Counted from the first letter of the stretch, positions 1,088-33,415 are shown. The stretch: DNA of 64,000 nt from Candidatus Methanophagaceae archaeon (GCA_003194425.1 PQXB01000001.1:263522-327521); one strand, 5' to 3'. Numbers and translations are program-made. Notes: generated from the sequence alone by a model not told the origin.

Positions 1088-2515
1088 CTATATAAATACT
1101 ACCTCTACTCTCTCGCCTTCTTCTACAATCTCCTTCCCCTTCTCCACGAACACAAAACCGTCCGCTTTTGCGAGCGTAGAGATTGCCCCAGAGCCACTGA
1201 GAAAGGGGTAAGCGAGGAAATGCTCTTCTTGCTCTTCTTCTGATTCTGACTCCGCACGAGCGAGATTCACAAGCACATATTCATTCCGCCCGGGTTCAGA
1301 GAATATCCTGACCCCCGCCTTCGCTTTTACCCTCTTCCTCCTTTCCCTTCCCTCGCTCCCTCCCCGCCCCTCGCTCCCTTCGCCCGAGATTGCGCGTAGC
1401 AGGGGAGCGACGAAAAGATGAAAGGTAATCAGAGCCGAGGTAGGGTTGCCGGGCAGTCCAAACACGGGCTTTCCCTGAATTACGCCAAGAACAAACGGTT
1501 TTCCGGGTTTTATGTCAACGCCGTGCACGAGAATCTCGCCGAGCCCTTCGATCACCGCGGGCAGCACGTCGCCAACGCCCGCAGAAGTCCCGCCAGACAG
1601 AATTACGACCTCTGCACCTTTTGCGAGCGATTCCCGGATCTTCGCCGAGATCTCTCCCTCCTCGTCCCGCGCAATCCCGAGGGAGAAAGGGGCGCAGCCG
1701 TTTTCTCGCGCGGAATCGCAGAGCGTCTGCGCGTTAACATCGTAGATTTTTCCAGGCGCGAGGGAAAGGGCTTCCCCCGGCGCTACTAATTCGTTGCCCG
1801 TGGAAATAACCGCAACTCTCGGCTTTTTACGAACCAATACTTCTCTTACCCCGCAGGCAGCCAGCACGCCCGTCTCTCGCGGCGTTAGCAGTCGCCCCTT
1901 TTTTACGACCTTCTCCCCGCGTTTTATGTCCGAGCCCGCGGGCATAATATTTTCCGCAGGAGCAACGGGCTTGTAAATTCTCACTTTTTTCGATTTTTCA
2001 AACTCAAACGCGTTCTCGACCTTTACCACCGCGTTCGCCCCTCTCGGAATCGGCGCACCCGTAGCAATCCCCACGCAACTGCCCTCCTCTACGCCGCCGT
2101 ATTGCGACGCCGAAGGGAACTCGCCTGCTTTGAGGTAGCCCCGAACAACCAACGTAGCAGGCTTGCTTTCGTCGGCGTAAAAAGTGTCCGCGGCGAGAAC
2201 CGCGTAGCCGTCCATCGTAGCGCGGTCAAACGGCGGAATGTCCAGCGGCGAGAAAATATCACCCACAACGGTTCTACCAAGTGCTTCCTCAGTCCTTACT
2301 TTCTCGCCCTTTCCCCCTCCTGCCCCAACGTTTCCCCCCCCTACCCCAGCGCCAGCGGTGATTTTTTTCGCAAGCTCCGCGCTAAGGTCGCCGATTAGCC
2401 TTTTTACTTCTCCCTCCTCTGTTATTTCCAAGAATTGCTTCACTTTGCTTTTAAAAGGAAAACCTATAAAAACAAACAAGTCTATAAAATAAAAGGTGAG
2501 AACAACGGCAGACAA
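1088..2515 (-). CDS. moeA: Molybdopterin molybdenumtransferase MoeA
   Basis: Motifs PFDRATMDGYAV, GGTSAGVGD, KPGKP, GLPGNP; start codon uncertain (N-terminal 30 aa of the ORF look like AT-rich read-through); contains low-complexity inserts. Confidence 0.8.
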   Translation of the reverse strand: MSAVVLTFYFIDLFVFIGFPFKSKVKQFLEITEEGEVKRLIGDLSAELAKKITAGAGVGGGNVGAGGGKGEKVRTEEALGRTVVGDIFSPLDIPPFDRATMDGYAVLAADTFYADESKPATLVVRGYLKAGEFPSASQYGGVEEGSCVGIATGAPIPRGANAVVKVENAFEFEKSKKVRIYKPVAPAENIMPAGSDIKRGEKVVKKGRLLTPRETGVLAACGVREVLVRKKPRVAVISTGNELVAPGEALSLAPGKIYDVNAQTLCDSARENGCAPFSLGIARDEEGEISAKIRESLAKGAEVVILSGGTSAGVGDVLPAVIEGLGEILVHGVDIKPGKPFVLGVIQGKPVFGLPGNPTSALITFHLFVAPLLRAISGEGSEGRGGSEGRERRKRVKAKAGVRIFSEPGRNEYVLVNLARAESESEEEQEEHFLAYPFLSGSGAISTLAKADGFVFVEKGKEIVEEGERVEVVFI

Positions 2516-3065
2516 AAGCAGGGGAAATAGGGCAACTGCAACCGCGACTCACGGAACCGGAACGGTTGTGGCAGTGGGAACTGTGCTGGCAGGTGCAAGC
2601 ACGGGTCTTAATCTTGAGGGGATTTTTTATAACGGAGGGACGAAAATTGGGTATGTAGTTCATATTTTTATTGCACGAAGAAAAGTTAAAAAGCAGGAAA
2701 AAGTTAAAAAGCAGGATAAGATAAAAGAGATATTAAAGGAAGCGAAGATGTTAATGACAAACAAATATCATCACGCTCATCTGCATCATTGGTTGGATGG
2801 GAGCGCCGAAGAAGGAAGGAAAGAAGGAGTAAGTGAGGGGCGCTACAAAAATACCGCAAAAATATGAATAAAACAGGGAATAGAGAGATAGAGGATAGTA
2901 TAGAAGGGGGTATAAGAAGGTGAAAGGGAAGAGCGCGGAGAAAAGCAGGGAAAAAACGAGTGAAAGGGGAAAAGCAAGTAGAAATAGAGCAGAATACCGA
3001 AACCTTTTTATACATACTACCGAAAAGCATATATACCCCTTCAAAGAAATAGAAGGTATAAAAAA

Positions 3066-3089
3066 AATTAGGAGGTGAAAACAAAAAAA
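3066..3089 (+). promoter_or_regulatory. Conserved leader / Shine-Dalgarno element ATTAGGAGGTGAAAAC upstream of ATG
   Basis: Near-identical motif also precedes starts at 17473, 19890, 50921(-) and, as GGGGGTGA, 62916(-); complementary to the CCUCC 3' end of 16S rRNA. Confidence 0.5.
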
Positions 3090-3710
3090 ATGAAAACGAA
3101 GATTGGCAAAAAAAGTATAGGAATATTGATTGCAGCGATAATAGTTACTTCAGTCTTTGCAGCGATTGCGCCGACAATTGGTCAGGAAGGAGATGATGGG
3201 ATAGTAGAACCGGAATGGGCACCACCAGCACCGTGGGGACCGGGCTTAAATATTACAATAGCGACACCACCAGAAGATTCCTGCGTGCACGATACGATAA
3301 ACCTTACGTGGCTAAAGAATGGCACGACTACCCCGGCAGTTTTAAAGGATTATCTGTATGTAGCGCTCGTTGACTGTGGGTCGCCGTATTGTATGCACAC
3401 AATAGAAGAGAAAGTCTGCCTGCATGGTTGTACCTACTATGAGGTAGATCTCACAGATAATGATTGGCAGAAACACATAGACCAGTGCGAGGAGTTCTGT
3501 ATATATGTCTGGAATTCTTCTACCAGATTCGGACTACCTGACACCTCATACTTTAGGAACGGGACTACGCTTAGATATGACAAAGTAGAGCCGTGCATAG
3601 AAGCGGTCGATCCAATAGATGGCAGATGGGTTAACTGCACAGCGGATCTTGAGTTGAACGTTTCGGCATGTGACTGGAGTCATAATTCCGCAGTGGGAAT
3701 AGTAAAGTAA
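3090..3710 (+). CDS. Secreted cysteine-rich hypothetical protein
   Basis: ATG at 3090 sits 8 nt after AGGAGGTGA (ORF track starts at in-frame GTG 3075); N-terminal MKTKIGKK + hydrophobic signal peptide; many Cys. Confidence 0.5.
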   Translation: MKTKIGKKSIGILIAAIIVTSVFAAIAPTIGQEGDDGIVEPEWAPPAPWGPGLNITIATPPEDSCVHDTINLTWLKNGTTTPAVLKDYLYVALVDCGSPYCMHTIEEKVCLHGCTYYEVDLTDNDWQKHIDQCEEFCIYVWNSSTRFGLPDTSYFRNGTTLRYDKVEPCIEAVDPIDGRWVNCTADLELNVSACDWSHNSAVGIVK

Positions 3711-3799
3711 AGGAGAACAGAAAAAAAAGGACCATAAAAAATTTGGATAGAAGAGGAACAAAAACCTCTTCTATTTTTTTATTTTTTTTGAACGGAAAA

Positions 3800-4912
3800 A
3801 TGAAATCTGTTAGTGTTATTGCGATGATAATTTTTGCACTCGCCGTGGCAGTGGAAGTGGCAGCAGCAATTCCGCCCTCTCCAAAATACGAAGTATATCG
3901 CGGCGATGTCTTCGTTAACGGAACGCTTGCGCCAGACGGGACGAGAGTGTCAGTAAAAGTAGGTGCGCTCGACGAAGTGGAAGACAGCACAGAAAATGGA
4001 ACATATTGGATAGCAATTAAATCCTCGCAAGCGAGCCAAGGAGACATGGTAACGCTTAAAATATACGATGCAGTCGTGGAGACTGCCAAAATTGATAAAA
4101 ACGACTACATCTCTCAAAATTACATAAATTTATACCTTGAGGATTATTTAGTAAACGAATCCGCACAACCGGACGCTCTGCCCGAAACGACAACCGAGAG
4201 CAGGATATTAGTAAATTGGGCATTTTATTCCGGCTACGACTCAACAGGGGTGAAATGCTACGAGTTGTTAAGGAGATACGAAGATGAGAAAACATTTTCC
4301 TCGCTCGTTAAGACAAATAATACACGCTATTTTGACATTCTAAACGCTACTGGCGAATATTGCTACAGGCTCGTAACCTACGACTTCGTCGGCAACTCCA
4401 AAAATTCTACGCAGGATGTCTGCACAACCTTCGTCTCCAACAAGACCTTCACACTCAACGGCTTCGTGAAATACGAAAACGGGACAGGAGTCAGCAACGC
4501 AAACGTTACCCTTGAAAAATACTTCAATCCTGTAAATTCAACCACCACGACCGAGAAAGGCTACTACGAACTCGCAGCCTCTTGGAAGAGGTACAATTTA
4601 ACCGCGGCGAAAGGAGATGTTTTGGTCTGGGGGAGGGAAGGGAAAGGAGGAGCAAAGTACATTTCCTTCCTTAACAGTTCCGCCGTCGTAAATTTAGACG
4701 CAAACAAGACCGTGAATCTTACTTTGGTAGTGAAAGGGGATTTGGACGGGGACTGCGCGGTGGGAATTGCGGATGTTCGTGTGGTCGCGAGAATGCTAGT
4801 TGGAAGCGTCTCGGAAGACTTGAAAGCGGACTTTAACGGGAACGGTTGCGTGGATTTAGGGGACGCTGCGAAGTTGCTCGGGTTTGTTAAAGGTGGAGTG
4901 AGTAAGTTATAA
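3800..4912 (+). CDS. Secreted protein with C-terminal type-I dockerin-like domain
   Basis: Signal peptide MKSVSVIAMIIFALAVA; C-terminus GDLDGDCAVGIADVRVVARMLVG ... ADFNGNGCVDLGDAAKLLGFV matches the duplicated Ca-binding dockerin segment; ORF track starts at TTG 3743, ATG 3800 preferred. Confidence 0.65.
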   Translation: MKSVSVIAMIIFALAVAVEVAAAIPPSPKYEVYRGDVFVNGTLAPDGTRVSVKVGALDEVEDSTENGTYWIAIKSSQASQGDMVTLKIYDAVVETAKIDKNDYISQNYINLYLEDYLVNESAQPDALPETTTESRILVNWAFYSGYDSTGVKCYELLRRYEDEKTFSSLVKTNNTRYFDILNATGEYCYRLVTYDFVGNSKNSTQDVCTTFVSNKTFTLNGFVKYENGTGVSNANVTLEKYFNPVNSTTTTEKGYYELAASWKRYNLTAAKGDVLVWGREGKGGAKYISFLNSSAVVNLDANKTVNLTLVVKGDLDGDCAVGIADVRVVARMLVGSVSEDLKADFNGNGCVDLGDAAKLLGFVKGGVSKL

Positions 4913-4984
4913 GAGGTGAGTAAGTTATAAGAAACGAAATAAAAAGAATAAGAAGAATAAAGAATAGGAGAAGCACGAGAAAAA

Positions 4985-5422
4985 ATGGGGAAGAAGAAAA
5001 GAGCAAAAGTAAGAATAGGAATGCTAGTAGTAGCGGTAAGTGTAGTAGCGTTGTTTTCGGCATCGGCATTCGCACAGCCGCCGGGTCTGCCATTTGGAAA
5101 CGAGACGACAAACGAAACGGGATTGCCACCCATTCCAATTCCGCCGACACAGCCTCCTGAAAATGCGCCTCTTCCGTCGCCTTCGGTAACCGCAACACTG
5201 CCTGTCTCTGCACCTGCCACTCCAACTGCACCACCAACTGCACCACCAACTGCACCTCCAACTGCACCAACTACTCCTACCGTGACGGTAACAGCAGTAA
5301 CACCAAAACCGCAAGCCGAGACGCCAGGTTTTAGCGTTTCGGCGGTTGTTACAGCAGTGCTTGGTCTTGGGTTTGTGTTAGTGGGGCTTAAAAGGACGGG
5401 GCAAAGAAAGAAGAGCAAATAA
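4985..5422 (+). CDS. Small secreted Pro/Thr-rich protein with PGF-CTERM-like sorting signal
   Basis: Signal peptide, (PTAP)n linker, then PGF (5325..5333) + hydrophobic helix + KRTGQRKKSK tail. Confidence 0.6.
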   Translation: MGKKKRAKVRIGMLVVAVSVVALFSASAFAQPPGLPFGNETTNETGLPPIPIPPTQPPENAPLPSPSVTATLPVSAPATPTAPPTAPPTAPPTAPTTPTVTVTAVTPKPQAETPGFSVSAVVTAVLGLGFVLVGLKRTGQRKKSK

Positions 5423-7870
5423 ATGGAAAGGATAATTGGAATAGCAATTTTCGTTTTGCTAGTCGCAGGGGTAGGGGCAGCGAGCGCCGACACCTTCGTG
5501 CCAGGCGAGGTGATTGTTGGTTTCGAGCGGGCAACAGGAGTGCAGGCACAGGAATCGCTGATAAAAAGCTGCGGCGGGGCAGTAACAGACAGAGACACCA
5601 CGCTTGGCTGGGTGTTAGCGAAGGTAGAAGAGGGGAAAGAGCAGGAATTTATCGCGAACATTTCGGGAGAGCGGGGCGTGAGGTACGCGGAGCGGAACGG
5701 AGTTGTAAGAGCGCTTTACGTTCCTAACGACCCAAAATGGAGTGAGCAGTGGGGACTGGAGAGAATAAACGCGGACGACGCTTGGAAGGTCGAGAAAGGC
5801 AGCACGAGCGTTAAAATCGCGATCGTGGACACAGGCGTAGACTACAACCACGAAGACTTAAACGCGAACTACTTTAGCGGGGGCTACGACTGGGTTAACA
5901 ATGACAGCGACCCTTGGGACGACTCGGTAGGGCAGTACCACGGACACGGCACACACTGCGCTGGGATTGCAGCCGCGGAGATGGATAATTCTGCAGGAAT
6001 CGCCGGCGTCGCGCAAGTCGGAATTCTGGCTGAAAAAGTTATTAACGAGACTGGCTACGGCTCTTACTCGGACTTGGCTAGCGGAATTCAGCACGCCGCA
6101 GCGCAGGGTGCAAAAATAATAAGCCTGAGCGTTGGCGGGAGTTCGGCTTCGCCCACTCTAAAAAATGCCTGCAAGTACGCCTGGGACAAGGGCTGCCTCC
6201 TCGTTGCCGCTGCCGGGAACGACGACACAACCGAAGTCTGCTACCCTGCACGCTACGAGACTGTAGTCGCGGTCGGCGCGATAAATGAGGTGGGCGTTAA
6301 GTCGATTTACAGCAACTACGGACCTGATGTTGAGCTGGCAGCACCCGGCGACGACATTCTCTCGACCCTTCCGAACAACACTTACACCCGCAAATTTGGG
6401 ACTTCGGCGGCTACTCCTTTTGTCGCCGGTGTTGCAGGGTTAGTTTGGTCGCGGAGTCCCGAGCTGACGAACGAGGAGGTGCGGGAGCGGTTGCACAGGG
6501 TCAGCACAGACTACGACTGGGTTGAGTACGGTTTGGTGGACGCAGCGAGGGCGCTCTCCACAGCCGCGGGGTCAGACTACGCACGGGCGGGCTCGCTGAT
6601 TGTAACGATTGGAAAAAACGCAACGACGCAGGTTAGCGTCGGGAACGCGAAAAATATTACCGGCGTCTCGTTGAACCTTGAGTACGACGCCTCTAAACTC
6701 TCGGTTCAAAAAATAGCCGCGAACGAGACGACAAACCAATCTTCAAACGGCTCCTGCTACTGCTACAGCAACACAACCTCCGCAGGAGTCGCAAGAATCG
6801 TTTTCCTCACCGCAGAACCGCTCAACTCAACAACAAGCGAGACCCCGATTCTTGACATTGAATTCAAGGCAGTAGGGGGCGCAGACACTCGCTCTTACTT
6901 GAATTTGAGTAGCGTCGAGTTTGCGAACGCGGGCTACCTGCCTTTCGCACCTTCAAAAGTCTTCAACGGCACGGTAGAGGTGAAGTCCTCCCTTTACGGC
7001 GTGAACCTAACCGTAGAAGGAACGAAGTGTGCGTGGAATTTCACTGAGCCGAACGAGAACGCAACTTTCCTCCTTGCACTGCGCAACACGGGCGTCGTTG
7101 CTGACAACTACACGCTTGAGGTTGAGAGCCCAGAGGGGGCGGAGGTCGCTGCGTTGAACTCAACAGAAATAACAAACCTCGCACCAGAGGCGACCGCAAA
7201 AGTCCTGCTTCAAGTAACCTCCGCAGACGAGGGTACTTACACTGTAAATGTAACCGCGACCTCAGAATGCGACCTGGACATTTACGACCAAGTCACGACG
7301 AGGACGCTCGTAGCCACGAGATATAATTTGCAAACAAGCCTGCTCGAAGGCTGGAACCTGTTCGGAGTGCCGCTAAATGTGAGTGTCGAGGTCGGTGGCA
7401 GTGGCTGGAGTTTGCCCGCGGTCTTGGCTTCAATCGAGGGAAAATACGACTACCTCTCCTACTACAACACGAGCACTGGGAGAACAGATTTCTACGACCC
7501 GCTCAACACCGAATTCTCGACGCTAAAGACCCTGAAACCCGGAGCAGGCTACCTCGTCCACCTAACTGAAGAGGCACCTGTCTCGCTCGAGTTTGAGGGT
7601 GTGAAGTTAAGGGGGTTGGAAGTGCCGTTGGAGAGAGGTTGGAATATGTTCTCGGTTCCGTACGGCGTAGCGGATAAAACGCTACCCGCGGTTCTGAAAT
7701 CAATCGAGGGAAACTACGACTACATTTACTACTACAACGCGACCACAGGGGAAATGGACTACTACGACCCGCTTAATCCCGAACTTTCAACGCTGAAAAT
7801 TTTAGAACCCGGAGCTGGGTATTTAATACACATAATTAACAAAGTAACATATTTTCCGGCAATTAAATAA
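5423..7870 (+). CDS. Secreted subtilisin-like serine protease (S8) with internal cohesin-like domain and C-terminal tandem modules
   Basis: Catalytic triad motifs DTGVDYNHEDL, HGTHCAGIAAA, GTSAATPFVAG; cohesin-like segment ~6590..6990 (LEYDASKLSV, ARIVFLTAE, FNGTVEV); two ~75-aa C-terminal repeats. Confidence 0.85.
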   Translation: MERIIGIAIFVLLVAGVGAASADTFVPGEVIVGFERATGVQAQESLIKSCGGAVTDRDTTLGWVLAKVEEGKEQEFIANISGERGVRYAERNGVVRALYVPNDPKWSEQWGLERINADDAWKVEKGSTSVKIAIVDTGVDYNHEDLNANYFSGGYDWVNNDSDPWDDSVGQYHGHGTHCAGIAAAEMDNSAGIAGVAQVGILAEKVINETGYGSYSDLASGIQHAAAQGAKIISLSVGGSSASPTLKNACKYAWDKGCLLVAAAGNDDTTEVCYPARYETVVAVGAINEVGVKSIYSNYGPDVELAAPGDDILSTLPNNTYTRKFGTSAATPFVAGVAGLVWSRSPELTNEEVRERLHRVSTDYDWVEYGLVDAARALSTAAGSDYARAGSLIVTIGKNATTQVSVGNAKNITGVSLNLEYDASKLSVQKIAANETTNQSSNGSCYCYSNTTSAGVARIVFLTAEPLNSTTSETPILDIEFKAVGGADTRSYLNLSSVEFANAGYLPFAPSKVFNGTVEVKSSLYGVNLTVEGTKCAWNFTEPNENATFLLALRNTGVVADNYTLEVESPEGAEVAALNSTEITNLAPEATAKVLLQVTSADEGTYTVNVTATSECDLDIYDQVTTRTLVATRYNLQTSLLEGWNLFGVPLNVSVEVGGSGWSLPAVLASIEGKYDYLSYYNTSTGRTDFYDPLNTEFSTLKTLKPGAGYLVHLTEEAPVSLEFEGVKLRGLEVPLERGWNMFSVPYGVADKTLPAVLKSIEGNYDYIYYYNATTGEMDYYDPLNPELSTLKILEPGAGYLIHIINKVTYFPAIK

Positions 7871-7886: not shown

Positions 7887-10800
7887 ATGGGAGAAAAGGG
7901 AAGGAAGAGAGAGGGGGGAAAGTGGAAGAAGAGACGACTGATTGGAGTAGCGGCGGTGGGGGCGATATTAGTGACGACTTTTGCTTCGCAGGCTGTGTGC
8001 GCATCGGTGCCGTTGTTTAATGAGGCAATACTTAGAGGGTATGTTTTCGATACGCAGGGAAATCCAATACAAAGGGCATTAATTGAATGGCGAGATAGCG
8101 AGACTATGGAACTATTTGAACTTACAACCACAACCTACACAGGATATTATTCCACGCCACACTTGTTCAACGACGCGGGCGCCGTAAGATCCTTGATAAC
8201 CGCCGCAAAGACAGACTTCTCTACTAACTCAACAATAATAACGACCGAGCCTGCTTTTCCGCCTACATTTTACGAACTGAATTTTACATTGCTTGAAATA
8301 GCGGAAACAGGCAGCATAAACATAAACGAGATAATGTACAATCCAAGCACGGAGCAAGGAAGCGACACCGTGCTGGAGTGGATTGAACTGCGCAACGACG
8401 ACACAGCAGCAGTGAACCTAAACGGCTGGACGATTGCGACACCCGAAGTAGGAAAAATAACAGAAGAAATAATTCTGCAGCCGGGAGGTTACGCAGTGCT
8501 TGCGAGGAACAAGGACGCGTTTGAGGCCTACTACGGTGCCGGTGGCGAGTTGTCGTGCTCGGTGGTAGAAGTGGAAATGAGACTTGGAAATGCAGAGGAC
8601 ACGGTAGTCTTGAAAGACGGTGCAGGAACAGAAATCGACCGGGTGTCCTACAAGGACGACTGGGGTGCGGACGGTAACGGGAAAACACTGGAACTAATTG
8701 GAGCAGGCGGGGGCTGGCGAGAGAGCGTAGCAGACGACGGAACGCCTTGTGCAGAGAACAGCGTAGTTTTTATGAAGCCCGACCTGACGGTTACCGTTTC
8801 AGACGGCTCGCTTAACTGCGGCTTCCTCTTCGGGAACGAGAGCAACGAGGTCTGCGTAACTGTCGAGAACATCGGCACTGACAGGACAGACGCGTTCAAC
8901 CTCTCCTTCGATATGAACGGCTTCAGCACAGAAGAGCGAGTGGCTGGCGGGTTAGTGGCTGGCGGGAATGCAACAACGGTCTGCGTCGCCGACCCGACGC
9001 TGCGAAGTGCGGGCGATTCGGTGACCGTTCGCGTCGTCGCAGACTGCAACGGCGAAATTACTGAGTCGAACGAGACGAACAACGCAGCCAGCCTCACAAC
9101 AACAGTCGTGAACAACGGCTACAAAGGAAAACGATACACCGGCGGCGAGGACATCGCCAGTTGGAAGAAATTTGAACTCAACGGCGACCTGCTCTACTCT
9201 GTCGGCGACAGTTTCTATCTGAGTGCTTACACCTACAAGCACTGGACGGAGTACGCTGCAAACTGGACTGTGAGCGACCTGCAAGTTCCTGATACTGAAA
9301 CTGCGACCGTTAGAGAGGCGAGGTTGTACGTGCCTTACACCTGGGACAAGGCAGGTGTGATGCCCGACGAGGTGAGCCTGACCTTCAACGGCGTGACTCA
9401 AACGTTGGACGCACACTACACGGATGAGAAAATGCACGCTACCAGCTACCCCTACGGAATGCTGGTATACAATGTAACCGAAGATTTGGATACAAGCGCA
9501 AGCGGCAACACCGCAGTACTCACTAACTCTCACCTCGGTGGCGGAAATGTGTCAATTCGCGGAATGCTTCTCACGGTGATTTACGCAGACGAGAGCGAGC
9601 CACTGCGTGAGATATTTGTTAACGAGGAGTTTGACCTGCTCTACGGCGGGGCGTCAAAATGCACGACGCCCGAGGAGGCGACCGCTTACGCTCCTTTCGG
9701 AACTGCTGACACTGAAGATGTTCTTTCTGCCACGCTGGTAACAGTCGCTCCTGGTGCAGGACCGAGTGAGGGGGAGCTGACCTTTAACGGGCAGAAATGG
9801 ACGGACGTGTGGAGTTTTGCAGGCGCTACGCAAATAGGAATAGACAAGCGAGAAGTAACTTCGTTCTTGCAGGCGGCCGAGAACGAAGCGGGGTTCCAAA
9901 GCAGCGCCGACTACTTTGAACCGAGCAACGCAATTCTCGTTGTAGAACACATTGAGCGGGTAAACCTAAACATAAACGAGATAATGTACAATCCAAGCAA
10001 GGAGCAAGGAAGCGACACCGTGCTGGAGTGGCTTGAACTGCGCAACGACGACACAGCAGCAGTGAACCTAAACGGCTGGACGATTGCGACACCCGAAGTA
10101 GGAAAAATAACAGAAGAAATAATTCTGCAGCCTGGAGGTTACGCAGTGCTTGCGAGGAACAAGGACGCGTTTGAAAATTACTACGGTGCCGGTGGCGAGT
10201 TGTCGTGCTCGGTGGTAGAAGTGGAAATGAGACTTGGAAATGCAGAGGACACGGTAGTCTTGAAAGACGGTGCAGGAACAGAGATCGACCGGGTGTCCTA
10301 CAAGGACGACTGGGGTGCGGACGGTAACGGGAAAACACTGGAATGGAATGCGACAGGCTGGTTTGAGAGCGAAGTAGAGGGCGGAACGCCTTGTGCAGAG
10401 AACAGCGTAGTTTTTATGAAGCCCGACCTGACGGTTACCGTTTCAGACGGCTCGCTTAACTGCGGCTTCCTCTTCGGGAACGAGAGCAACGAGGTCTGCG
10501 TAACTGTCGAGAACATCGGCACTGACAGGACAGACGCGTTCAACCTCTCCTTCGATATGAACGGCTTCAGCACAGAAGAGCGAGTGGCTGGCGGGTTAGT
10601 GGCTGGCGGGAATGCAACAACGGTCTGCGTCGCCGACCCGACGCTGCGAAGTGCGGGCGATTCGGTGACCGTTCGCGTCGTCGCAGACTGCAACGGCGAA
10701 ATTACTGAGTCGAACGAGACGAACAACGCAGCCAGCCTCACAACAACAGTCGTGAACAACGGCTACAAAGGAAAACGATACACCGGCGGCGAGGACATCG

Positions 10801-13436
10801 CCAGTTGGAAGAAGTTTGAACTCAAAGGCAACTTGCTCTACTCGGTCGGCGACAGTTTTTACCTGAGTTCCTCCACGCAGAAGCACTGGGCGACCTACAC
10901 TGCCAACTGGACTACAGGAGACCTACCAGTTCCCGAGACTGCGACTGTTAGAGAGGCGAGGTTGTACGTGCCTTACACCTGGGACAAGGCAGGTGTGATG
11001 CCCGACGAGGTGAGCCTGACCTTCAACGGCGTTGCTCAAACACTGGATGCACACTACACAGACAGGAAAGGCTACGGCTCCTACGACTACCCTTACGGAG
11101 CGCTGGCTTACAATGTAACCTCGGGTTTTGACCTTGACGTAAGGAACACCGCAGTGCTAACGAACACACACCCCGGCGGTGGAAATGTGTCAATTCGCGG
11201 AATGCTTCTCACGGTGATTTACGCAGACGAGAGCGAGCCACTGCGGGAGATATTTGTTAACGAGGAGTTTGACCTGCTCTACGGCGGGGCGTCAAAATGC
11301 ACGACGCCCGAGGAGGCGACCGCTTACGCTCCTTTCGGAACTGCTAACACTGAAGATGTTTTCTCTGCCACGCTGATAACAGTCGCTCCTGGTGCAGGAC
11401 CGAGTGAGGGGGAGCTGACCTTCAACGGGCAGAAATGGACGGACGTGTGGAGTTTTGCAGGCGCTACGCAAATAGGAATAGATAAGCGAGAAGTAACTGC
11501 GTTCTTGCAGGCGGCCGAGAACGAAGCGGGGTTCCAAAGCAGCGCCGACTACTTTGAACCGAGCAACGCATTCCTCGTTGTAGAACACAAGAGGCCAGAC
11601 CTTGTCGTCAGAGGGATTAAAATAAACCCCAACGGCACTCGCGGCGAAGAGATTGTTAGGGTTTATGTAAATGAGAGCAACAACCTCACTGCAGTCGTGC
11701 AGAACAACGGAAATGCCGACGCAGGAGCGTTTGAGGTCTGCTTCGAGGTGGGTTCAGGCGTTGAGGTCGGCTGCGTAAACGTGGCTGGACTGCCTGCTGG
11801 GGCTAACGCAACGGTCAGCACCTTTTGGACGCCGTGTTGCGAAAACTACTCGGTTGAGCCCGGTTTCCCGGCACGCTCGCTTCCCACAACTGTAAATGTA
11901 ACTGCGGACTGCACTGAAAAAATACCCGAGTCAGACGAGGCGAACAACCTGCTCTCGAAGTTTATTCCCGCTGTTCAGCAGTACGCGGGCTACGATGTTT
12001 TAGGCGGGGTCGTTAACAACGGCTACAAGAGCAAGAACTTCGACTGCAACGCCACTGAAGAGCCGCTGACACTCTTCGAGCACGAGGAGGAGTTGCTCGG
12101 CGGCGGTCTCGCGTTAAATGTAAGCGGTGCGAAAATCAGTTCCTTCGATCCCGGCGAGACCAGCACAAGAACCCACCACATTGAAATTCCTGAAGGTGCA
12201 ACCGTGAAAACCGCGAGGCTCTACGTCTACTGGTACGACAAATGGGGTAACTACAAGCAGTACCCAACTGGGTGCTTGGCGGACCTCAGCGTGAATTTTG
12301 GTGGCACCGAGTTCGCACCCGCAAAGAAATACAACGACCAGAAGGGCTTCGGCTACTACCACAGCCCGAAAGGAACTTACACCTACAACGTGACCTCAAA
12401 GGTGCGAGAAGCCGGGTCTGGCGACTACACCGCAGTCGTCAAGAACACCGACCCCAAGAACAGCACGACCCTACTCGGCGAAATGCTACTCGTCGTCTAC
12501 GACGACCCAGCGAAGACAAACCTCACGCAAATTTGGGTGCTTGAGGGCAACGACTACTTAATGTCCGCAGACGAGACGCACAACAGCTACAACTACGGCG
12601 TCTCGCCAGAAGAGGCGACTGCAACCGTGAAATTACCCGGAAACCTCTCGACAGCGGCAGCGAATCTCAGTTCCGTCTGCTCTGCAACGCTAATTTCGGT
12701 CGTCGCGCAGGGAATGTCGCCTGGAGCAAACCTACTCTTCAACGGCGAAGTCGTTAAGACAGACGCTTGGAACACGGAGACCGAAGCCTACCCAAACAGC
12801 AAAATTAATTTGGAGTCGTTAGATGTGAAGCCCTACCTGACCTTAACCGCTTCAGGCAACAGAGGAAACAGCGTTGGCTTCCAAGACACTGGCACCGACG
12901 GTCTGCAGGCGAGCAACGCGATTCTTGTGGTGGAATATTCTGAGCAAGAGCCACTGCACCCCGCTGTTTCAATTTCCACCGACAAAACAGACTACACCCC
13001 TGGCGAGACAATGCAAATTACACTGAACTTGTCAAATCCAACGGGGACTGACCAAACGGTGTGGTTTGAGTGGTACTTTGGAATACCGGCTTACAGCTAC
13101 TGGCTGCCTTTTGTAGAGCCTTTGCCTTTAAATTTGCCCGCGGGTTGCGAGTACTCCTTCCCCTTTTCAATTTTGGTAGGCAACTGGGGCGAGACGGGAT
13201 TTGACGCAGTCTGGCTCGTGAACCTGTCAGACCCGGTAACGCACAAAATTATAAGTTCTGACACTGCCGAGTGGAGCTACGCCCCTGTTCCTCCTGCTAC
13301 TGCTGTTGCTACCGCTGCAGTTAGCAGCGAGCAAACGCGAAGCGTAGAGAACTTTGATGAGGAAATGTTAGGTTCAGGCAGAGAAATAGAAAAGAAGTTA
13401 AAGGCAAAATTAGAAAGTGAAACAGAAAAAAGATGA
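7887..13436 (+). CDS. Giant secreted protein (1849 aa): 2x [lamin-tail domain - CARDB-like - NNGY module], a third diverged module, and the shared C-terminal domain
   Basis: Signal peptide; LTD-like INEIMYNP...EWIELRN...NLNGWTI; CARDB-like ...ITESNETNN; C-terminal SISTDKTDYTPGETMQI...AEWSYA domain. Confidence 0.85.
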   Translation: MGEKGRKREGGKWKKRRLIGVAAVGAILVTTFASQAVCASVPLFNEAILRGYVFDTQGNPIQRALIEWRDSETMELFELTTTTYTGYYSTPHLFNDAGAVRSLITAAKTDFSTNSTIITTEPAFPPTFYELNFTLLEIAETGSININEIMYNPSTEQGSDTVLEWIELRNDDTAAVNLNGWTIATPEVGKITEEIILQPGGYAVLARNKDAFEAYYGAGGELSCSVVEVEMRLGNAEDTVVLKDGAGTEIDRVSYKDDWGADGNGKTLELIGAGGGWRESVADDGTPCAENSVVFMKPDLTVTVSDGSLNCGFLFGNESNEVCVTVENIGTDRTDAFNLSFDMNGFSTEERVAGGLVAGGNATTVCVADPTLRSAGDSVTVRVVADCNGEITESNETNNAASLTTTVVNNGYKGKRYTGGEDIASWKKFELNGDLLYSVGDSFYLSAYTYKHWTEYAANWTVSDLQVPDTETATVREARLYVPYTWDKAGVMPDEVSLTFNGVTQTLDAHYTDEKMHATSYPYGMLVYNVTEDLDTSASGNTAVLTNSHLGGGNVSIRGMLLTVIYADESEPLREIFVNEEFDLLYGGASKCTTPEEATAYAPFGTADTEDVLSATLVTVAPGAGPSEGELTFNGQKWTDVWSFAGATQIGIDKREVTSFLQAAENEAGFQSSADYFEPSNAILVVEHIERVNLNINEIMYNPSKEQGSDTVLEWLELRNDDTAAVNLNGWTIATPEVGKITEEIILQPGGYAVLARNKDAFENYYGAGGELSCSVVEVEMRLGNAEDTVVLKDGAGTEIDRVSYKDDWGADGNGKTLEWNATGWFESEVEGGTPCAENSVVFMKPDLTVTVSDGSLNCGFLFGNESNEVCVTVENIGTDRTDAFNLSFDMNGFSTEERVAGGLVAGGNATTVCVADPTLRSAGDSVTVRVVADCNGEITESNETNNAASLTTTVVNNGYKGKRYTGGEDIASWKKFELKGNLLYSVGDSFYLSSSTQKHWATYTANWTTGDLPVPETATVREARLYVPYTWDKAGVMPDEVSLTFNGVAQTLDAHYTDRKGYGSYDYPYGALAYNVTSGFDLDVRNTAVLTNTHPGGGNVSIRGMLLTVIYADESEPLREIFVNEEFDLLYGGASKCTTPEEATAYAPFGTANTEDVFSATLITVAPGAGPSEGELTFNGQKWTDVWSFAGATQIGIDKREVTAFLQAAENEAGFQSSADYFEPSNAFLVVEHKRPDLVVRGIKINPNGTRGEEIVRVYVNESNNLTAVVQNNGNADAGAFEVCFEVGSGVEVGCVNVAGLPAGANATVSTFWTPCCENYSVEPGFPARSLPTTVNVTADCTEKIPESDEANNLLSKFIPAVQQYAGYDVLGGVVNNGYKSKNFDCNATEEPLTLFEHEEELLGGGLALNVSGAKISSFDPGETSTRTHHIEIPEGATVKTARLYVYWYDKWGNYKQYPTGCLADLSVNFGGTEFAPAKKYNDQKGFGYYHSPKGTYTYNVTSKVREAGSGDYTAVVKNTDPKNSTTLLGEMLLVVYDDPAKTNLTQIWVLEGNDYLMSADETHNSYNYGVSPEEATATVKLPGNLSTAAANLSSVCSATLISVVAQGMSPGANLLFNGEVVKTDAWNTETEAYPNSKINLESLDVKPYLTLTASGNRGNSVGFQDTGTDGLQASNAILVVEYSEQEPLHPAVSISTDKTDYTPGETMQITLNLSNPTGTDQTVWFEWYFGIPAYSYWLPFVEPLPLNLPAGCEYSFPFSILVGNWGETGFDAVWLVNLSDPVTHKIISSDTAEWSYAPVPPATAVATAAVSSEQTRSVENFDEEMLGSGREIEKKLKAKLESETEKR
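8317..9952 (+). repeat. Intragenic tandem duplication, copy 1 (~1.64 kb)
   Basis: By eye about 95-97% identical to 9967..11592; mirrored by duplicated antisense shadow ORFs in the ORF track. Confidence 0.9.
9967..11592 (+). repeat. Intragenic tandem duplication, copy 2 (~1.63 kb)
   Basis: Direct repeat of 8317..9952 with a few substitutions and short indel blocks. Confidence 0.9.
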
Positions 13437-17255: not shown

Positions 17256-17472
17256 AACTACTTAAAGACGTAAAAGAAACTTTTAATGAAGGAGAAAAAG
17301 CAGAGAAAGAAAAATGTCAGGCTCGTCTGTTTCAAGTTGGATGAGAGCGTCTGGGGGGAACGCCGTGGGAAAAATAGAAATAAGAGAGGAAAACCGAAGC
17401 GGAGAGGAAAGACGCTTTACAAGTAAAAACCCTCTAAAGTCAAAAAAAAATTAGGAGGTGAAAAAAGAAAAA

Positions 17473-19188
17473 ATGAAAACCAAAAGACTACTAAGCCTTT
17501 TAATAGTTTTTACAGTGGTGCTGAGTGTAAGCGTGAGTGCAGGAACGGTCTCGGCAGCGACGCCGAACGACGGGCCAGGTTCGAGCACGAGCAGCGGTGC
17601 GTTTTCTGGAGCAGAGGTGTTGGGTTTGCCGAGGAGTTTCACGCTCGAGGACAGCTTTGGCTACACTTGGGATTTGGACATCGTTTTTGGATGCGTGCTG
17701 TACGGCACAAAGACCTCGAGCATTGGGACCTACCCAGCGTACGGGTACGTATTCGGGAACGAGATGGTTCTGTGGGCTGACAACCCCGGTTCTCCCTACT
17801 CGGACAGCTTTGCCTACACCGGAATGTGGAACTACAAAACAATGAAATTCGACGGAAAATGGGTCGGCTACCCAAAAGGGTCAGGCAATGTCTCAATGTG
17901 GTTTGCTAAGAGTGCGGTAGGCGAAGGAGAAGAAAAGACCTGGACGAGCGAGAATGTAGAAGAAGGACCTGACGCGGCGGCAAGTGCAGGCACAGAGACA
18001 GCGGTTGCACAACAAGCGGTTGCACAACAAAACCTCGATGCTGCGCCGAGCACTGAAGGTAGCGCTAGTGCTAGTGCGACATTCTTGATTGACGGAGAGA
18101 ACGCGGAAGAAGAGATTAGCGGTCTGTTTAGTCGCGGTGCGATTTGCCTCGAAGACAGCTTTAGCTACACCTGGGATTTGGACATCCTCTACGGCTGCAT
18201 CTTGTACGGCACAAAGACCTCGGGTATTGGAACTCATCCCGCGTACGGCTTCGTATTCGGCGACGAAATGTTCCTCTGGGCTGACAATCCTGGTGGGGAA
18301 TATTCAGACAGCTTCGTCTACACCGGGAAGTGGAACGCCGCGGTAACGCTCTTCAACGGAACCTGGATTAACTATCCGATGGGGTCTTCAGGCACGGTCG
18401 AAGTGTGGCCCTGCGGTGGTGGACCAACTGAGACAGAGTACTACGCCGTAATCGCGGGCGAGGGTTACGGTTGTAGTTACGCCGACAGCGACGCCTACGA
18501 TATGTACGGACTTCTTACGAGCGAGTTCAACAACAACTGGAAGAAGGAGAACGTCAGGCTGTTAGTGAGCACCGCGGACGGGACGAAACACGACTGCACA
18601 CGGACAAAGATTCGGAACGGGATTTCGTGGATGGCGAGCGAAGCGGACGAGGACGATGTTAGCCTCTTCTTCTACGCGGGGCACGGCGGTTACCAGACGG
18701 ATGTGACACCACTCGACGAAAGCGACGGCAACGACGAATACATTTGCCCCGAGGGCGGGAACATTCTTGACGACGAACTCAACAACTGGTTGTCTGCGGT
18801 GCCTGGGTACAAGCTGGTCGCACTCGACTCCTGCTTCAGCGGCGGGTTCATTAAAGCCGACGGAGCAGAGGTTAGGAGCGTGCCGGGACTGCCGAGAATT
18901 GACCGAACCGACGGTTTCAGAGAAGACCTCTGCAAGAAGGGGTTCAACGTGCACACCGCCTGCGACGAGGACGAGAGTGCCTACGGCTACGCAGCACTGA
19001 ACAACGGCGTCTTCACTTACTACCTCGTGCAGGGTCTTTACGGACCCGCAGACTCGGACAGCGACGGAGACATAGACTCGTTTGAAGCACACACCTACAC
19101 AAGACCAAAAGTAATTTCGTACACTGGCGGCGACCAGAACCCCTGGCGCTGCGCTGGCACAACTGACCCGCTGATTTGGGTGCTGTAA
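17473..19188 (+). CDS. Secreted caspase-domain (C14 / metacaspase-like, clan CD) cysteine peptidase with two N-terminal tandem domains
   Basis: ATG 17473 after AGGAGGTGA; signal peptide; His motif FYAGHGG and Cys motif LDSCFSGG; ~100-aa domain repeated twice (FTLEDSFGYTWDLDI... / ICLEDSFSYTWDLDI...). Confidence 0.7.
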   Translation: MKTKRLLSLLIVFTVVLSVSVSAGTVSAATPNDGPGSSTSSGAFSGAEVLGLPRSFTLEDSFGYTWDLDIVFGCVLYGTKTSSIGTYPAYGYVFGNEMVLWADNPGSPYSDSFAYTGMWNYKTMKFDGKWVGYPKGSGNVSMWFAKSAVGEGEEKTWTSENVEEGPDAAASAGTETAVAQQAVAQQNLDAAPSTEGSASASATFLIDGENAEEEISGLFSRGAICLEDSFSYTWDLDILYGCILYGTKTSGIGTHPAYGFVFGDEMFLWADNPGGEYSDSFVYTGKWNAAVTLFNGTWINYPMGSSGTVEVWPCGGGPTETEYYAVIAGEGYGCSYADSDAYDMYGLLTSEFNNNWKKENVRLLVSTADGTKHDCTRTKIRNGISWMASEADEDDVSLFFYAGHGGYQTDVTPLDESDGNDEYICPEGGNILDDELNNWLSAVPGYKLVALDSCFSGGFIKADGAEVRSVPGLPRIDRTDGFREDLCKKGFNVHTACDEDESAYGYAALNNGVFTYYLVQGLYGPADSDSDGDIDSFEAHTYTRPKVISYTGGDQNPWRCAGTTDPLIWVL

Positions 19189-19889: not shown

Positions 19890-21893
19890 ATGAAAACAAA
19901 ACAAGATGAGAAAAATAAATCAAAAGCGAAGACAAAGACAAAGGCGATTTACGCGGTGCTACTGCTGGTAGTTTTGGCGCTCGGAGTTTTAGTCGCAGTG
20001 CCAAGCGGTGCGGCAGCAGAAGAGCAGACAGCAGAAGAAAAAACGATTGCGGAGTTGCAGCAAGAGATTTACGAGCAGGGCTACAACTACACGGTCGCCG
20101 AGAACAGGATTACGAGACTTCCGGCAGAAGAGAGAGCGGCAGTCTGCGGCTACAAACCGCTGAAAGCACCCGAAGATCCTGTTCCAGACGAAAATATCAG
20201 GTTCGTTGCTGACGCACCGAGCAGTCAAGGAGCGAAAACAGAAGCAGAGGCAGAAGTCAGGGCGCCAAGTTCTTACGACGCGATGGCACTCGGATTTGTG
20301 ACGCCTGTAAAAGACCAGAGTTATCCTATTCCGTGTGGCAGTTGCTGGATCTTCGGAGCGACCGCGGAATTCGAGTCTGATGTCGCGATCGGCGAAGGAA
20401 CGCTGCTTGACTTCGCGGAGCAGGAGGTCGGGGACTGCAACATTTGGTCAAGCGTCGGCGGCTACGACTTCTGCGACGGCGGGAACGCGTTTATGACCAC
20501 TAACTTCTTTACCAAGCACGGCGCAGCGGACGAAGCCTGCCACCCCTACGCAGCGACACCGCAGACCTGCCAAGACTGCCCTATTCTAAAGAAAGTGGAC
20601 AACTGGCGGATGATTACGGGCAGCAGCGGGGAAAGCCAAATAACGACAATCAAGAACGCGATTCTGAACTACGGACCTGTCTACTCAACAATCTACGCAA
20701 ACGCAGGATTCAAGGCTTACAACAGCGGCGTCTACGAGTACTGGGAAGCAAACGAGACGAACCACGCGATAGAAATTATCGGCTGGGACGACTCGAAAGT
20801 GCACTCGCACGGAACCGGAGCGTGGCTGATAAAGAACAGTTGGGGAACAGATTGGGGAACAGCGGGACCGTACCCGGGCTGCGCCTGGGTAGCGTACGGA
20901 GCAGCAAACCTCGGGGACTACACGAGTGCAGTCACAGGCTACAACGACTTCAACACGGACGACGAGATTTTCTACCACGACGAGTGCGGCTGGATGGGGT
21001 GGTGCACGGGTTACGACACGCCAACAGCCTACGGAGCGGTGCGTTTCACGCCAACGCAGGACACGACACTGACCGCGGTTGACTTCTGGGCTGTTGACCC
21101 AGGAATGCAGTACGAGATAAAAATATTCGACACCCGAAATGCAGTAGGCAGCGGAAAATACACCTTCAGCAGCCAACTCGGCATTACTCAAACAGTAACC
21201 ACAAACGAGCCGGGCTACTACTCCGTGCCACTCACGACAACAGTGCCACTAACAGCAGGCGACGACTTCATCGTGCAGGTGAAAGCAACGACTACGACCG
21301 GCTGGGGCTACCCAGCACCGATCGACTACTGCACTGACTCAGACCTGAACTGGGCGGGAATTGCAACCTCTTCAGGCGAGAGTTACGTGAGCCCTGACGG
21401 GACGGAGTTTGAGAAATACGGCACCGGCGGGAAAGACCTCGGAATAAGAGCCAGAGCAGAGCGAGAAGCCCCGGAAGAACCAGAAATCAGCGTAGAGACA
21501 GACAAGTTCGAGTACTGCCTCGGCGAGACGATGGAAATTAAAATAGCAGTCTCAAACCCGACGAGCAGCCCAGTAACTTTGAAATGGTTCTTTGGGTCGC
21601 CCACGCTGGGAGTTTGGCTGCCGATGTACGTAGGCTCGCTGCCTGCAGGCTACGCGAACACTTTTGTAGTGCCGCTGCCCGTCGAGAAGTGGAGCGAGAC
21701 GCCGTTCAGTGCGGTCTGGTACGTGGACTTGCAGGACCCGGAAACAGGAAAAGAGTTAGCAGCGGACTGTGCGTGCTGGTCGTACGCCTACCCGTACTGC
21801 CCGAAGTGTGAGTCAGAGCCAAAGCTAACGCAGCCTTTAGAAAAAATAGCAGCAGGAAGAGAAATAGGAGAACAAATAAAAGGCTCTGCGTAA
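19890..21893 (+). CDS. Secreted papain-like cysteine protease (C1) with the shared C-terminal domain
   Basis: Cys motif CGSCWIFGA, His motif NHAIEIIGWDD, KNSWGTDWG; signal peptide; C-terminal ETDKFEYCLGETMEI...CWSYAYPY. Confidence 0.85.
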   Translation: MKTKQDEKNKSKAKTKTKAIYAVLLLVVLALGVLVAVPSGAAAEEQTAEEKTIAELQQEIYEQGYNYTVAENRITRLPAEERAAVCGYKPLKAPEDPVPDENIRFVADAPSSQGAKTEAEAEVRAPSSYDAMALGFVTPVKDQSYPIPCGSCWIFGATAEFESDVAIGEGTLLDFAEQEVGDCNIWSSVGGYDFCDGGNAFMTTNFFTKHGAADEACHPYAATPQTCQDCPILKKVDNWRMITGSSGESQITTIKNAILNYGPVYSTIYANAGFKAYNSGVYEYWEANETNHAIEIIGWDDSKVHSHGTGAWLIKNSWGTDWGTAGPYPGCAWVAYGAANLGDYTSAVTGYNDFNTDDEIFYHDECGWMGWCTGYDTPTAYGAVRFTPTQDTTLTAVDFWAVDPGMQYEIKIFDTRNAVGSGKYTFSSQLGITQTVTTNEPGYYSVPLTTTVPLTAGDDFIVQVKATTTTGWGYPAPIDYCTDSDLNWAGIATSSGESYVSPDGTEFEKYGTGGKDLGIRARAEREAPEEPEISVETDKFEYCLGETMEIKIAVSNPTSSPVTLKWFFGSPTLGVWLPMYVGSLPAGYANTFVVPLPVEKWSETPFSAVWYVDLQDPETGKELAADCACWSYAYPYCPKCESEPKLTQPLEKIAAGREIGEQIKGSA

Positions 21894-27690: not shown

Positions 27691-27933
27691 ATGGCGTAAT
27701 GATACAAAAATTAGTAAATATTCTTTTATTTAAAAGAAAGGAAATATTAAAAAGGTGGTTGAAAATGAAAGGCGCTAAAAAAGTTCATTTCCCTGTTCTC
27801 GTGGAGAGGGATGAAAATGGTTTTTTGTGGTTGAATGTCCTTTTCTTCAAGGGTGCTACATACAGGGCAAAACGCTGGACCAGGCGTTGAAAAACAGAAC
27901 ATGCATGAAGAGAAGAAAAAGAGCAAAAGAATA

Positions 27934-30109: not shown

Positions 30110-30565
30110 ATGGAACTAAACAGACAGAACCGCTACCAATTTCAGTGGTGGGCACTCTCGCTAGTCGACGCACGACCGTTCGGCGATAAAAAGAAAGGTG
30201 CTGACACTGGAATCGACGGCTATTTCTTCTTTAACGACGCTGGCGAGACAAAGAAGGCAGTGGTGCAGGTTAAGAGCGGTAAAGTCGGAGTCAGCCAAAT
30301 CCGCGAACTAATCCAAGTCGTAGCGAGAGAGAAAGCGAAAATGGGCTTCTTCTTGACTCTAAAAACTCCAACAGCAGCAATGACCGAAGCAGCCACAGGC
30401 GAGGGATTTTATTCTGATTCCTTCGGTAATAAATATCCAAAGCTCCAAATCTTTACGATTGAAGAACTTCTTAACAATAAAAGTCCAGACACGCCGCAAA
30501 AAGTCGGTCTCTTTGAATCTTTCCGAAATACCAAAAGGAGAAAGAATAAAAGAAACAAAAAATGA
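30110..30565 (+). CDS. Standalone Mrr-like restriction-endonuclease-domain protein (paralog of the methyltransferase C-terminus)
   Basis: Begins with the same first four codons as the methyltransferase (MELN) then the Mrr-like domain; carries QVK where the fused copy has SVK. Confidence 0.55.
   Translation: MELNRQNRYQFQWWALSLVDARPFGDKKKGADTGIDGYFFFNDAGETKKAVVQVKSGKVGVSQIRELIQVVAREKAKMGFFLTLKTPTAAMTEAATGEGFYSDSFGNKYPKLQIFTIEELLNNKSPDTPQKVGLFESFRNTKRRKNKRNKK
30121..30525 (+). repeat. Direct repeat copy B (~0.4 kb) flanking pyrF
   Basis: See copy A. Confidence 0.85.
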
Positions 30566-31739: not shown

Positions 31740-32504
31740 CTAAACCCTCCAGAGCAGCGGCATAAGCAAAAAGAGGACGACATTTGTCATGCCGTGTGAA
31801 ATGCTGACGCCGATGATCGAGCCTGTGAACTCCTTTATGTAGGCGTAGAAGCAGCCGATTAGGAAGACGAAGACCACATCGAGTGGCGACAAGTTTCCAA
31901 TGTGCATTACAGCGAAAAGGGTCGTGGTAAAAAGAATTCCTGTGTGCCGAGCGGGACTGAAATATTTAGTGGCGTTGTGTTGAATAATTCCCCTAAAAAG
32001 AAGTTCCTCGATGAACCCGGTGCAGACCATAAAAATCACAACCGGAGCAAAAAGCGACCTGAAGGAGAGCTCCTCTAACAGCGGACCGGGCTCCAAAATT
32101 AAATACTCAACAACTCCAAAAGGAACGCCTGTAAAACTTATTGCAAGTTGCGAGGGGATTTGCCGCAGTTTGAGCACGAGACCAACATCCTTTTCGTTTA
32201 AGTGCTGAGAGAAGATCAAAATTGCAGAAGCGAAAAAAAGCGGGATGCTCAGTAAAAAAAACCACTGCACAAAATGAAAAAGGTAAAGAGGGGCGTAAAG
32301 AGTAAGTATTCTGATTAGGGGAACGAGCGCGAGAGAAGTGAGGAGGTGCGAGCTATTTTTGTCTGTGGGGTACGAAAATGCTGCGTGTCCGAGGAGGGTA
32401 AAGAGAAGGAGACCGTGGCAAAAGAGCCCCCAATCTGATTTGAGTAGAGCTGTAATTCCCTCGGCAGCGGTGATGAGAAAGAGGTAAATAAATTCTTTTT
32501 TCAC
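31740..32504 (-). CDS. CPBP-family (CAAX protease-like) intramembrane metalloprotease
   Basis: Multi-TM protein with EELLFRG and FAVMHIGN motifs; start overlaps stop of the upstream gene. Confidence 0.7.
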   Translation of the reverse strand: MKKEFIYLFLITAAEGITALLKSDWGLFCHGLLLFTLLGHAAFSYPTDKNSSHLLTSLALVPLIRILTLYAPLYLFHFVQWFFLLSIPLFFASAILIFSQHLNEKDVGLVLKLRQIPSQLAISFTGVPFGVVEYLILEPGPLLEELSFRSLFAPVVIFMVCTGFIEELLFRGIIQHNATKYFSPARHTGILFTTTLFAVMHIGNLSPLDVVFVFLIGCFYAYIKEFTGSIIGVSISHGMTNVVLFLLMPLLWRV

Positions 32505-33373: not shown

Positions 33374-33415
33374 TCTCTCATTCTTATCTTTATTATGATA
33401 TTTATTACCTCCTTC

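Follow-up and report, generated by a model that had tools for sequence, protein, structure and literature searches.

A 64,000-nucleotide stretch of DNA from a Candidatus Methanophagaceae archaeon (GCA_003194425.1, PQXB01000001.1:263522-327521; the whole stretch is called the window below, and positions are counted from its first letter) contains a cassette of three co-oriented, tightly packed + strand genes, at 3797-4912, 4985-5422 and 5423-7870. The first encodes a non-catalytic protein that ends in a dockerin module, the third an S8 serine protease that carries a cohesin module, and the small gene between them a Thr/Pro-rich protein. Each of the three products has a hydrophobic N-terminus that reads as signal-peptide-like, and export of all three is predicted on that basis. 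The arrangement is conserved in three lineages, and we lean toward the view that the protease's cohesin and its neighbor's dockerin form a Ca-dependent 1:1 complex outside the cell. A preliminary description of this DNA had proposed an extracellular protease complex assembled through these modules; the analysis below confirms its observation and supports its interpretation in part. We assign the window to a methane-oxidizing archaeon of anaerobic methanotrophic (ANME) group 1, the Methanophagales, because the S8 protein has a 99% identical counterpart (P0001) in ANME-1 cluster archaeon ex4572_4 and the window DNA, from position 3674 onward, is 98% identical to a contig of the ex4572_4 metagenome-assembled genome (MAG).

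The protease (5423-7870, 815 amino acids (aa)) is a thermitase-like enzyme by Pfam and Protein Data Bank (PDB) alignment. It begins with a signal peptide and a fervidolysin-type propeptide (5477-5698; Pfam Fervidolysin_NPro, 44 bits), and the Peptidase_S8 catalytic domain follows at 5807-6505 (PF00082, 186 bits). This domain aligns with 1thm at an E value of 2e-63, with the Asp, His and Ser motifs (DTGV, HGTHCAG and GTSxxxP) all matched, so the earlier identification of the gene as a subtilisin holds; the catalytic domain is intact and the enzyme apparently active. Behind it come a single cohesin module (aa 397-520; 6611-6982), a weak stretch that Pfam assigns to an Ig/CARDB-like domain (7007-7282), and a tandem C-terminal repeat made up of two uncharacterized copies of ~85-90 aa that belong to no Pfam family (7310-7867).

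The cohesin assignment rests on three kinds of search. Pfam PF00963 matches the S8 protein with 31.4 bits (E 2.4e-7; gathering cutoff 24.1) over profile positions 13-139 of 139, and the published S4 Data of PMC9012536 give the module the CDD label cd08547, 'type II cohesin', at E 7e-8. Searches of PDB sequences, whether with the single sequence or with a three-sequence profile, gave nothing significant, and the top matches were cohesins at E 0.14-0.25; the module is evidently too divergent for sequence searches of solved structures. An AlphaFold2 model of aa 385-525, made from a three-sequence alignment, is of low confidence (predicted local distance difference test (pLDDT) 56, predicted template modeling score (pTM) 0.53). 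When this model was compared with 350,542 PDB chains by Foldseek, ranks 1-42 were exclusively cohesins (template modeling (TM) scores 0.45-0.62), and the top match was 2vo8 (E 3.9e-4, TM 0.58/0.60). The C-terminal repeat, modeled with a pLDDT of 69 and searched by the same procedure, gave no PDB match (best E 0.06, TM below 0.25), and because this control matched nothing, the cohesin matches are not generic beta-sandwich noise. We conclude that the cohesin on the S8 protease is real, and the approximate boundaries first given for it (~6590-6990) are correct.

This type of cohesin is rare and confined to the lineages that have the cassette. Among 120 S8 homologues, local phmmer and hmmsearch searches found it in P0001-P0003 only; a scan of species-level genome contigs with the cohesin alignment gave no confirmed locus, and a scan of metagenomes gave just two loci, which are same-species and 99% identical over the cohesin. 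The C-terminal repeat, with the signature GWN[LM]F.VP ... YDY..YYN ... PGAGYL, is always present as a terminal pair in Methanophagales-type S8 proteases (P0002 and P0004-P0006), and we regard it as a candidate surface-attachment or ligand-binding module.

The partner protein (3797-4912, 371 aa) consists of a signal peptide, an Ig-like N-terminal domain, an FN3-like domain, a CarboxypepD_reg beta-sandwich (4451-4612; Pfam, 31.5 bits) and, at its C-terminal end, the dockerin module (4733-4909), in which two Ca-binding loops are each followed by a helix. Its C-terminal sequence is KGDLDGDCAVGIADVRVVARMLVGSVSEDLKADFNGNGCVDLGDAAKLLGFVKGGVSKL. Loop 1 (DLDGDCAVGIAD, 4739-4774) and loop 2 (DFNGNGCVDLGD, 4829-4864) are 12 residues long, and both have D or N at positions 1, 3, 5 and 12; the duplicated Ca-binding segment first noticed at ~4735-4909 was thus correctly placed. 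Pfam Dockerin_1 (PF00404, cutoff 22.9 bits) scores 19.0 bits on the full protein and 22.6 bits (E 1.2e-4) on the tail alone, 0.3 bits short of gathering. Profile searches had been suggested in the preliminary description as the way to check both modules, and by that measure the cohesin is over its cutoff and the dockerin just under. With phmmer the tail matches a type I dockerin of known structure, 2y3n_B (E 9e-5), and a profile of 25 homologous tails, every one of which matches PF00404 (25/25), recovers 20 solved dockerins with a best E of 4.5e-8. An exhaustive HMMER search retrieved 292 related proteins; 122 of the retrieved proteins match the tail, and in 103 of these it lies no more than five residues from the C-terminus. 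The dockerin on the 3797-4912 protein is real.

Orthologues of the dockerin protein include P0121 (62% identical), P0122 (46%) and P0123. The dockerins of the cassettes form a distinct subclade, in which the Tyr that is usual for the family at position 18 is replaced by Gly, Ser or Arg and the family's helix 3 motif, I-A-Y-Y-L-V, by L-[LF]-G-[YF]-V-K. Such differences are consistent with a private binding specificity.

An argument that the two modules belong together comes from gene linkage. The order dockerin protein, Thr/Pro-rich PGF protein, S8-cohesin protease is repeated in two further metagenomic lineages, whose loci we call L001 and L006. In L001 the protease is 67% identical to that of the window and the dockerin protein 62% (over the aligned C-terminal half); in L006 these values are 54% and 46%. 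Both proteases have kept the cohesin, which by local check is single and borne only by the protease; the Pfam lists computed beforehand for P0002 and P0003 omit it, and for this reason it was confirmed locally. The genes are as tightly packed elsewhere as in the window: the window's protease start codon directly adjoins the stop codon of the middle gene (0 nucleotide (nt) gap), and cassette genes overlap by 4 nt in L001 and by 10 nt in L006. Three additional contigs hold near-identical copies of the window cassette. Nature also provides a control in P0004, a related S8 protease that has the C-terminal repeat, lacks the cohesin and has no dockerin-bearing neighbor. The conservation of this linkage in three lineages makes the modules plausible partners.

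An independent published list agrees with this pairing. For ANME-1 ex4572-4, S4 Data of Chadwick et al. 2022 (PMC9012536) contain exactly two proteins, both on NJEM01000058.1: gene 00627, which is the S8 protease and is given cd08547 'type II cohesin' over aa 389-503 (E 7e-8), and gene 00629, given cd14256 'type I dockerin' over aa 331-379 (E 7e-6). The window's protease and dockerin protein are nearly identical to these two, so the list holds a single protein of each kind, cohesin and dockerin, with gene numbers only two apart. By a rough estimate, two genes among at least 629 would fall within two positions of each other by chance with a probability of ~4/628, or less than 1%. None of the six frames of the 64-kb window contains a dockerin loop pattern other than the tail of the 3797-4912 protein. 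Pairing is thus supported both by the sole dockerin of the window and by the sole cohesin and dockerin proteins listed for a near-identical MAG. It is supported in addition by the nature of the modules, since 2y3n_B, the dockerin's best match among solved structures, comes from a complex with 2y3n_A, a type II cohesin that is itself among the fold matches of the protease module, and the published CDD label of that module is also type II.

The middle gene (4985-5422) encodes a small secreted protein of 145 aa that is almost wholly low-complexity and rich in Thr and Pro. It ends in a PGF motif, a transmembrane helix and a basic tail (~5318-5419, ending '..TPGFSVSAVVTAVLGLGFVLVGLKRTGQRKKSK'), a pattern kept by the L001 and L006 orthologues at the same gene position. 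The preliminary description had called this a PGF-CTERM-anchored protein. The conserved pattern speaks for that label and the TIGR04126 (PGF-CTERM) score of 11.0 bits, under the cutoff of 24.5, speaks against it, so that the label is plausible but not established. The sole sortase encoded within the window (33416-34252) was considered as the archaeosortase A (ArtA) for this protein and was rejected, as it is EpsH/XrtA-like and not archaeosortase A.

Upstream of the cassette, a 12-bp hairpin on the + strand, with a T-run and an A/T-rich stretch behind it (3745-3776), lies between the gene at 3075-3710 and the ATG at 3797, and it is likely to mark a transcription-unit boundary ahead of the cassette. 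The open reading frame (ORF) listing starts the dockerin gene at a TTG at 3743; since that start overlaps the hairpin and T-run, the true start is most likely the ATG at 3797. Sigma-70 promoter predictions were set aside because the host is archaeal, and the hairpin alone was kept from that scan. Two contigs that are otherwise 93-98% identical to the window, L002 and L010, begin to match it only at about 3674 and 3682, respectively, and the low-GC stretch at ~2500-3674, which includes part of the gene at 3075-3710, has no counterpart in either. There is a strain-variable junction immediately upstream of the cassette.

How might such a pair work? We suggest that the dockerin plugs into the protease's cohesin outside the cell, in a Ca-dependent and roughly 1:1 fashion, and that the protease would thereby gain a partner with Ig-like, FN3-like and CarboxypepD_reg-like domains that could serve in targeting or spacing. 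The Thr/Pro-rich, PGF-tailed protein might act as a stalk which, together with or in place of the protease's C-terminal repeats, would retain the complex at the cell surface. Its likely role would be surface or extracellular proteolysis, either for protein scavenging or for the processing of large surface proteins encoded nearby. Proteolysis of this kind fits the locus, because genes for C14 and C1 peptidases and for a giant DUF3344/CARDB/LTD protein lie in the same 19-kb + strand cluster, which the cassette opens. What the sequences show are the identities of the modules, the intact catalytic domain and the conserved linkage; for binding, stoichiometry, anchoring and role the scheme is a proposal.

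A larger assembly was implied by the preliminary description, which spoke of a scaffolded proteolytic assembly, and this was overstated. Pfam scans of 24 other window ORFs found no cohesin, leaving the one on the S8 protease as the only one, and the giant DUF3344 protein and the C14 and C1 peptidases have no hidden cohesin or dockerin by Pfam or by loop pattern. Nor was a multi-cohesin scaffoldin found in the 64-kb window or at the L001 and L006 loci. The cohesin is on the enzyme and the dockerin on a non-catalytic beta-sandwich protein, a polarity that is reversed relative to that of cellulosomes. Given a single enzyme-borne cohesin, this reversed polarity and no scaffoldin, a 1:1 complex is the most that the sequence supports.

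Several points weigh against the two modules being each other's partners in the way just described. The Gly at Ca-ligand position 9 of dockerin loop 1 is atypical. P0126, which is 33% identical to the dockerin protein and a distant orthologue of it, adjoins no cohesin; as the P0004 locus is likewise unpaired, we take the linkage to be particular to the clade in which this type of cohesin occurs. The cassette dockerin subclade is also found on other proteins in other genomes, namely P0128 (NosD+PKD) and P0129 (cohesin+PKD+dockerin), and partners may be encoded elsewhere, because ANME genomes generally carry large cohesin-dockerin networks. The S4 Data list that names just these two proteins covers only proteins annotated as hypothetical, from a MAG that is incomplete. 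The independent lineages number only three, below what a covariation test needs, and anchoring by the PGF-tailed protein is pure inference.

Some of these points lead to the alternative that survives best, one that we consider possible but rather unlikely: that the two modules are nodes of a genome-wide ANME network with their partners encoded elsewhere, and that their adjacency reflects only membership in a cluster of surface-protein genes. The dockerin would then tether its protein to some anchor or adaptor that bears a cohesin, and the protease's cohesin would capture other proteins equipped with dockerins. ANME-1 genomes are reported to be rich in such domains, and scaffoldin-like multi-cohesin proteins are among those described (PMC5244752, PMC9012536). 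The dockerin family itself keeps varied company. Among 77 proteins that carry it, the co-occurring domains are PKD (24), cohesin (16), NosD (12) and, more rarely, S-layer (4) and C1 peptidase (2) domains, so that cohesins sit on 16 of the 77; the cassette subclade occurs on NosD/PKD and cohesin/PKD proteins as noted, and two S8 proteases (P0084 and P0097) bear a closely related C-terminal dockerin of the same family. Mere cluster membership, however, does not readily account for a cassette linkage that is kept at 54-67% protease identity, for the cohesin-less control P0004 being without a dockerin neighbor, for a near-identical MAG that lists these two proteins only, or for a rare cohesin type that is co-distributed with one dockerin subclade.

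In the opposite direction, the pairing could be part of something more elaborate, namely a self-contained, minimal archaeal surface 'proteolysome' with private specificity, composed of the S8-cohesin protease, a dockerin-bearing targeting subunit and a glycosylated, PGF-anchored stalk, in which the C-terminal repeats would attach to the stalk or the S-layer and the enzyme would serve ANME-1 in processing its giant surface proteins or in remodeling or harvesting proteins of the consortium matrix; we hold this extension to be doubtful. Least probable by our reckoning is that the cohesin-like module is a structural beta-sandwich extension that binds no dockerin and the dockerin-like tail a Ca-binding stabilizing or unrelated module: the cohesin's divergence (E 0.14-0.25 against solved cohesins), its low-confidence model and a dockerin slightly under the Pfam cutoff with Gly at position 9 of loop 1 would allow this, but a Pfam cohesin score above the curated cutoff, cohesin-exclusive fold matches and a dockerin profile that finds 20 solved dockerins argue otherwise, and the co-conservation of the two modules would be left unexplained. 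Pairwise binding of the protease and its dockerin-bearing neighbor is the reading that we favor, as somewhat more likely than not.

The 19-kb + strand cluster that begins with the cassette consists of genes for secreted proteins, several of them Ig-like. Directly after the protease gene lies that of the giant secreted protein (7887-13436, +; 1849 aa), which has three DUF3344, three CARDB and two LTD domains; a DUF3344/CARDB gene comes after the cassette in L006 and L002 as well. An LTD-CARDB-DUF3344 unit of ~1.65 kb within it is duplicated almost identically, and both window copies match the same L002 stretches at 97-99.7% identity. Assemblies readily collapse at a repeat of this kind, and about 190 nt near 8059-8246 are indeed skipped in the alignment with L002. 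Farther along the cluster are a secreted C14 caspase-like peptidase (17458-19188, +) and a secreted C1 papain-like peptidase fused to a Lectin_like domain (19890-21893, +).

The remainder of the window holds a bacterial-style exosortase set, in an archaeon, on the - strand at 31740-34252. It comprises an EpsH-type exosortase (33416-34252, -; TIGR02602, 142.5 bits with a cutoff of 105.6) whose nearest subtype is XrtA, an EpsI-like DUF3485 protein (32501-33373, -) and a CPBP/Rce1-like intramembrane protease (31740-32504, -). A NosD/right-handed beta-helix surface protein of 1253 aa is encoded at 47160-50921 (-). A 90-aa stretch that overlaps it in another frame of the same strand (47095-47367) ends '...VPVPEFSAVGLLYLVGVLSAVLAVAMRKRE', which resembles a PEF-CTERM sorting signal, and this tail may be the true C-terminus of the NosD protein, reached by a frameshift, or may belong to a separate small gene. 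If the tail is its own, the NosD protein would be a candidate substrate for the exosortase, which lies 13 kb from it. At 27835-29370 (+) an N6/N4 DNA methylase and an Mrr-type restriction endonuclease domain are joined in one protein, and a stand-alone Mrr_cat protein is encoded at 30110-30565 (+), with an OMP decarboxylase gene between the two. The window also contains an archaeal RNase P RNA (40392-40675, +; 189 bits), tRNA-Pro(GGG) (61220-61292, +) and tRNA-Thr(GGT) (63663-63734, -). In other metagenomes the archaeal dockerin family of the cassette is found, besides on the NosD+PKD protein P0128 and the adaptor-like cohesin+PKD protein P0129, on a SoxA/TsdA-type c-type cytochrome (P0147), and this last protein may have a bearing on extracellular electron transfer.

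Pure cultures of ANME archaea cannot be obtained, and the cassette offers a simple test case in this group: a single cohesin and a single dockerin, whose genes lie two positions apart and are conserved together. As these modules may be the only ones of their kind in the lineage, the likely partners are obvious, and they amount to two small recombinant domains. Binding of the two, if demonstrated, would give a first experimentally anchored ANME cohesin-dockerin pair, and one tied to extracellular proteolysis. The general picture would be unchanged even so, as enzyme-borne cohesins, dockerin-bearing peptidases and archaeal pairs are all known; the value of the locus, a modest one, lies in a clean and readily testable pair in an uncultured methanotroph.

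To our knowledge, no A. fulgidus cohesin or dockerin host protein is an S8 protease. Archaeoglobus fulgidus does resemble the present case in that its cohesin and dockerin are archaeal and not part of a cellulosome (Bayer et al. 1999; Haimovitz et al. 2008, cited in PMC9012536), and differs from it in the host proteins that carry them, a likeness drawn from description; no A. fulgidus cohesin is among the top 50 fold matches of our cohesin model. Archaeal versions of the cohesin-dockerin interaction have been verified as forming specific, strong bonds (PMC9012536). The statement in the preliminary description that archaea rarely have cohesin-dockerin pairs no longer holds for ANME, since between them two papers put the number of such domains in ANME-1 genomes at dozens to more than 100. 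Timmers et al. 2017 (PMC5244752) report these domains as highly abundant in ANME-1 and ANME-2a; in Table 2 of that paper the first two genome columns give counts of 80/77 for cohesin and 149/112 for dockerin domains. The other paper, Chadwick et al. 2022 (PMC9012536), is one whose authors give ANME cohesins and dockerins their own section, stress dockerins on ABC substrate-binding, S-layer and scaffoldin-like multi-cohesin proteins, and explicitly raise the question of the binding partners of such proteins; besides the two proteins of our cassette, their S4 supplement lists S8+NosD proteins and a dockerin-bearing cysteine protease in ANME-2c. The published non-cellulosomal proteins of ANME and Methanosarcinales are like those described here in organism group and module families. 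The two domain calls are thus not new, whereas the available excerpts of these two papers (PMC5244752, PMC9012536) do not discuss the pair, the conserved three-gene cassette with its probable pairing, or the link to a protease.

Among bacterial systems, cellulosomes and cellulosome-like complexes such as the Limousia mucinolysome (PMC12997984) share with the cassette the assembly of secreted hydrolases by cohesin and dockerin, and dockerin-bearing peptidases are known in them (PMC12997984); they differ in being built from multi-cohesin scaffoldins and dockerin-bearing enzymes, where here there is one enzyme-borne cohesin and no scaffoldin. The polarity of the cassette is that of the toxin complexes of Clostridium perfringens, in which five glycoside hydrolases have one cohesin each (PMC12997984). 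Those complexes, too, are secreted and pairwise, with a single enzyme-borne cohesin and no scaffoldin. In C. perfringens (PDB 2vo8, 2jh2 and 2ozn) the organism is bacterial, the enzymes are glycoside hydrolases and binding has been demonstrated by experiment, whereas in the ANME-1 cassette an archaeal protease would be joined, as predicted from sequence, to a non-catalytic partner.

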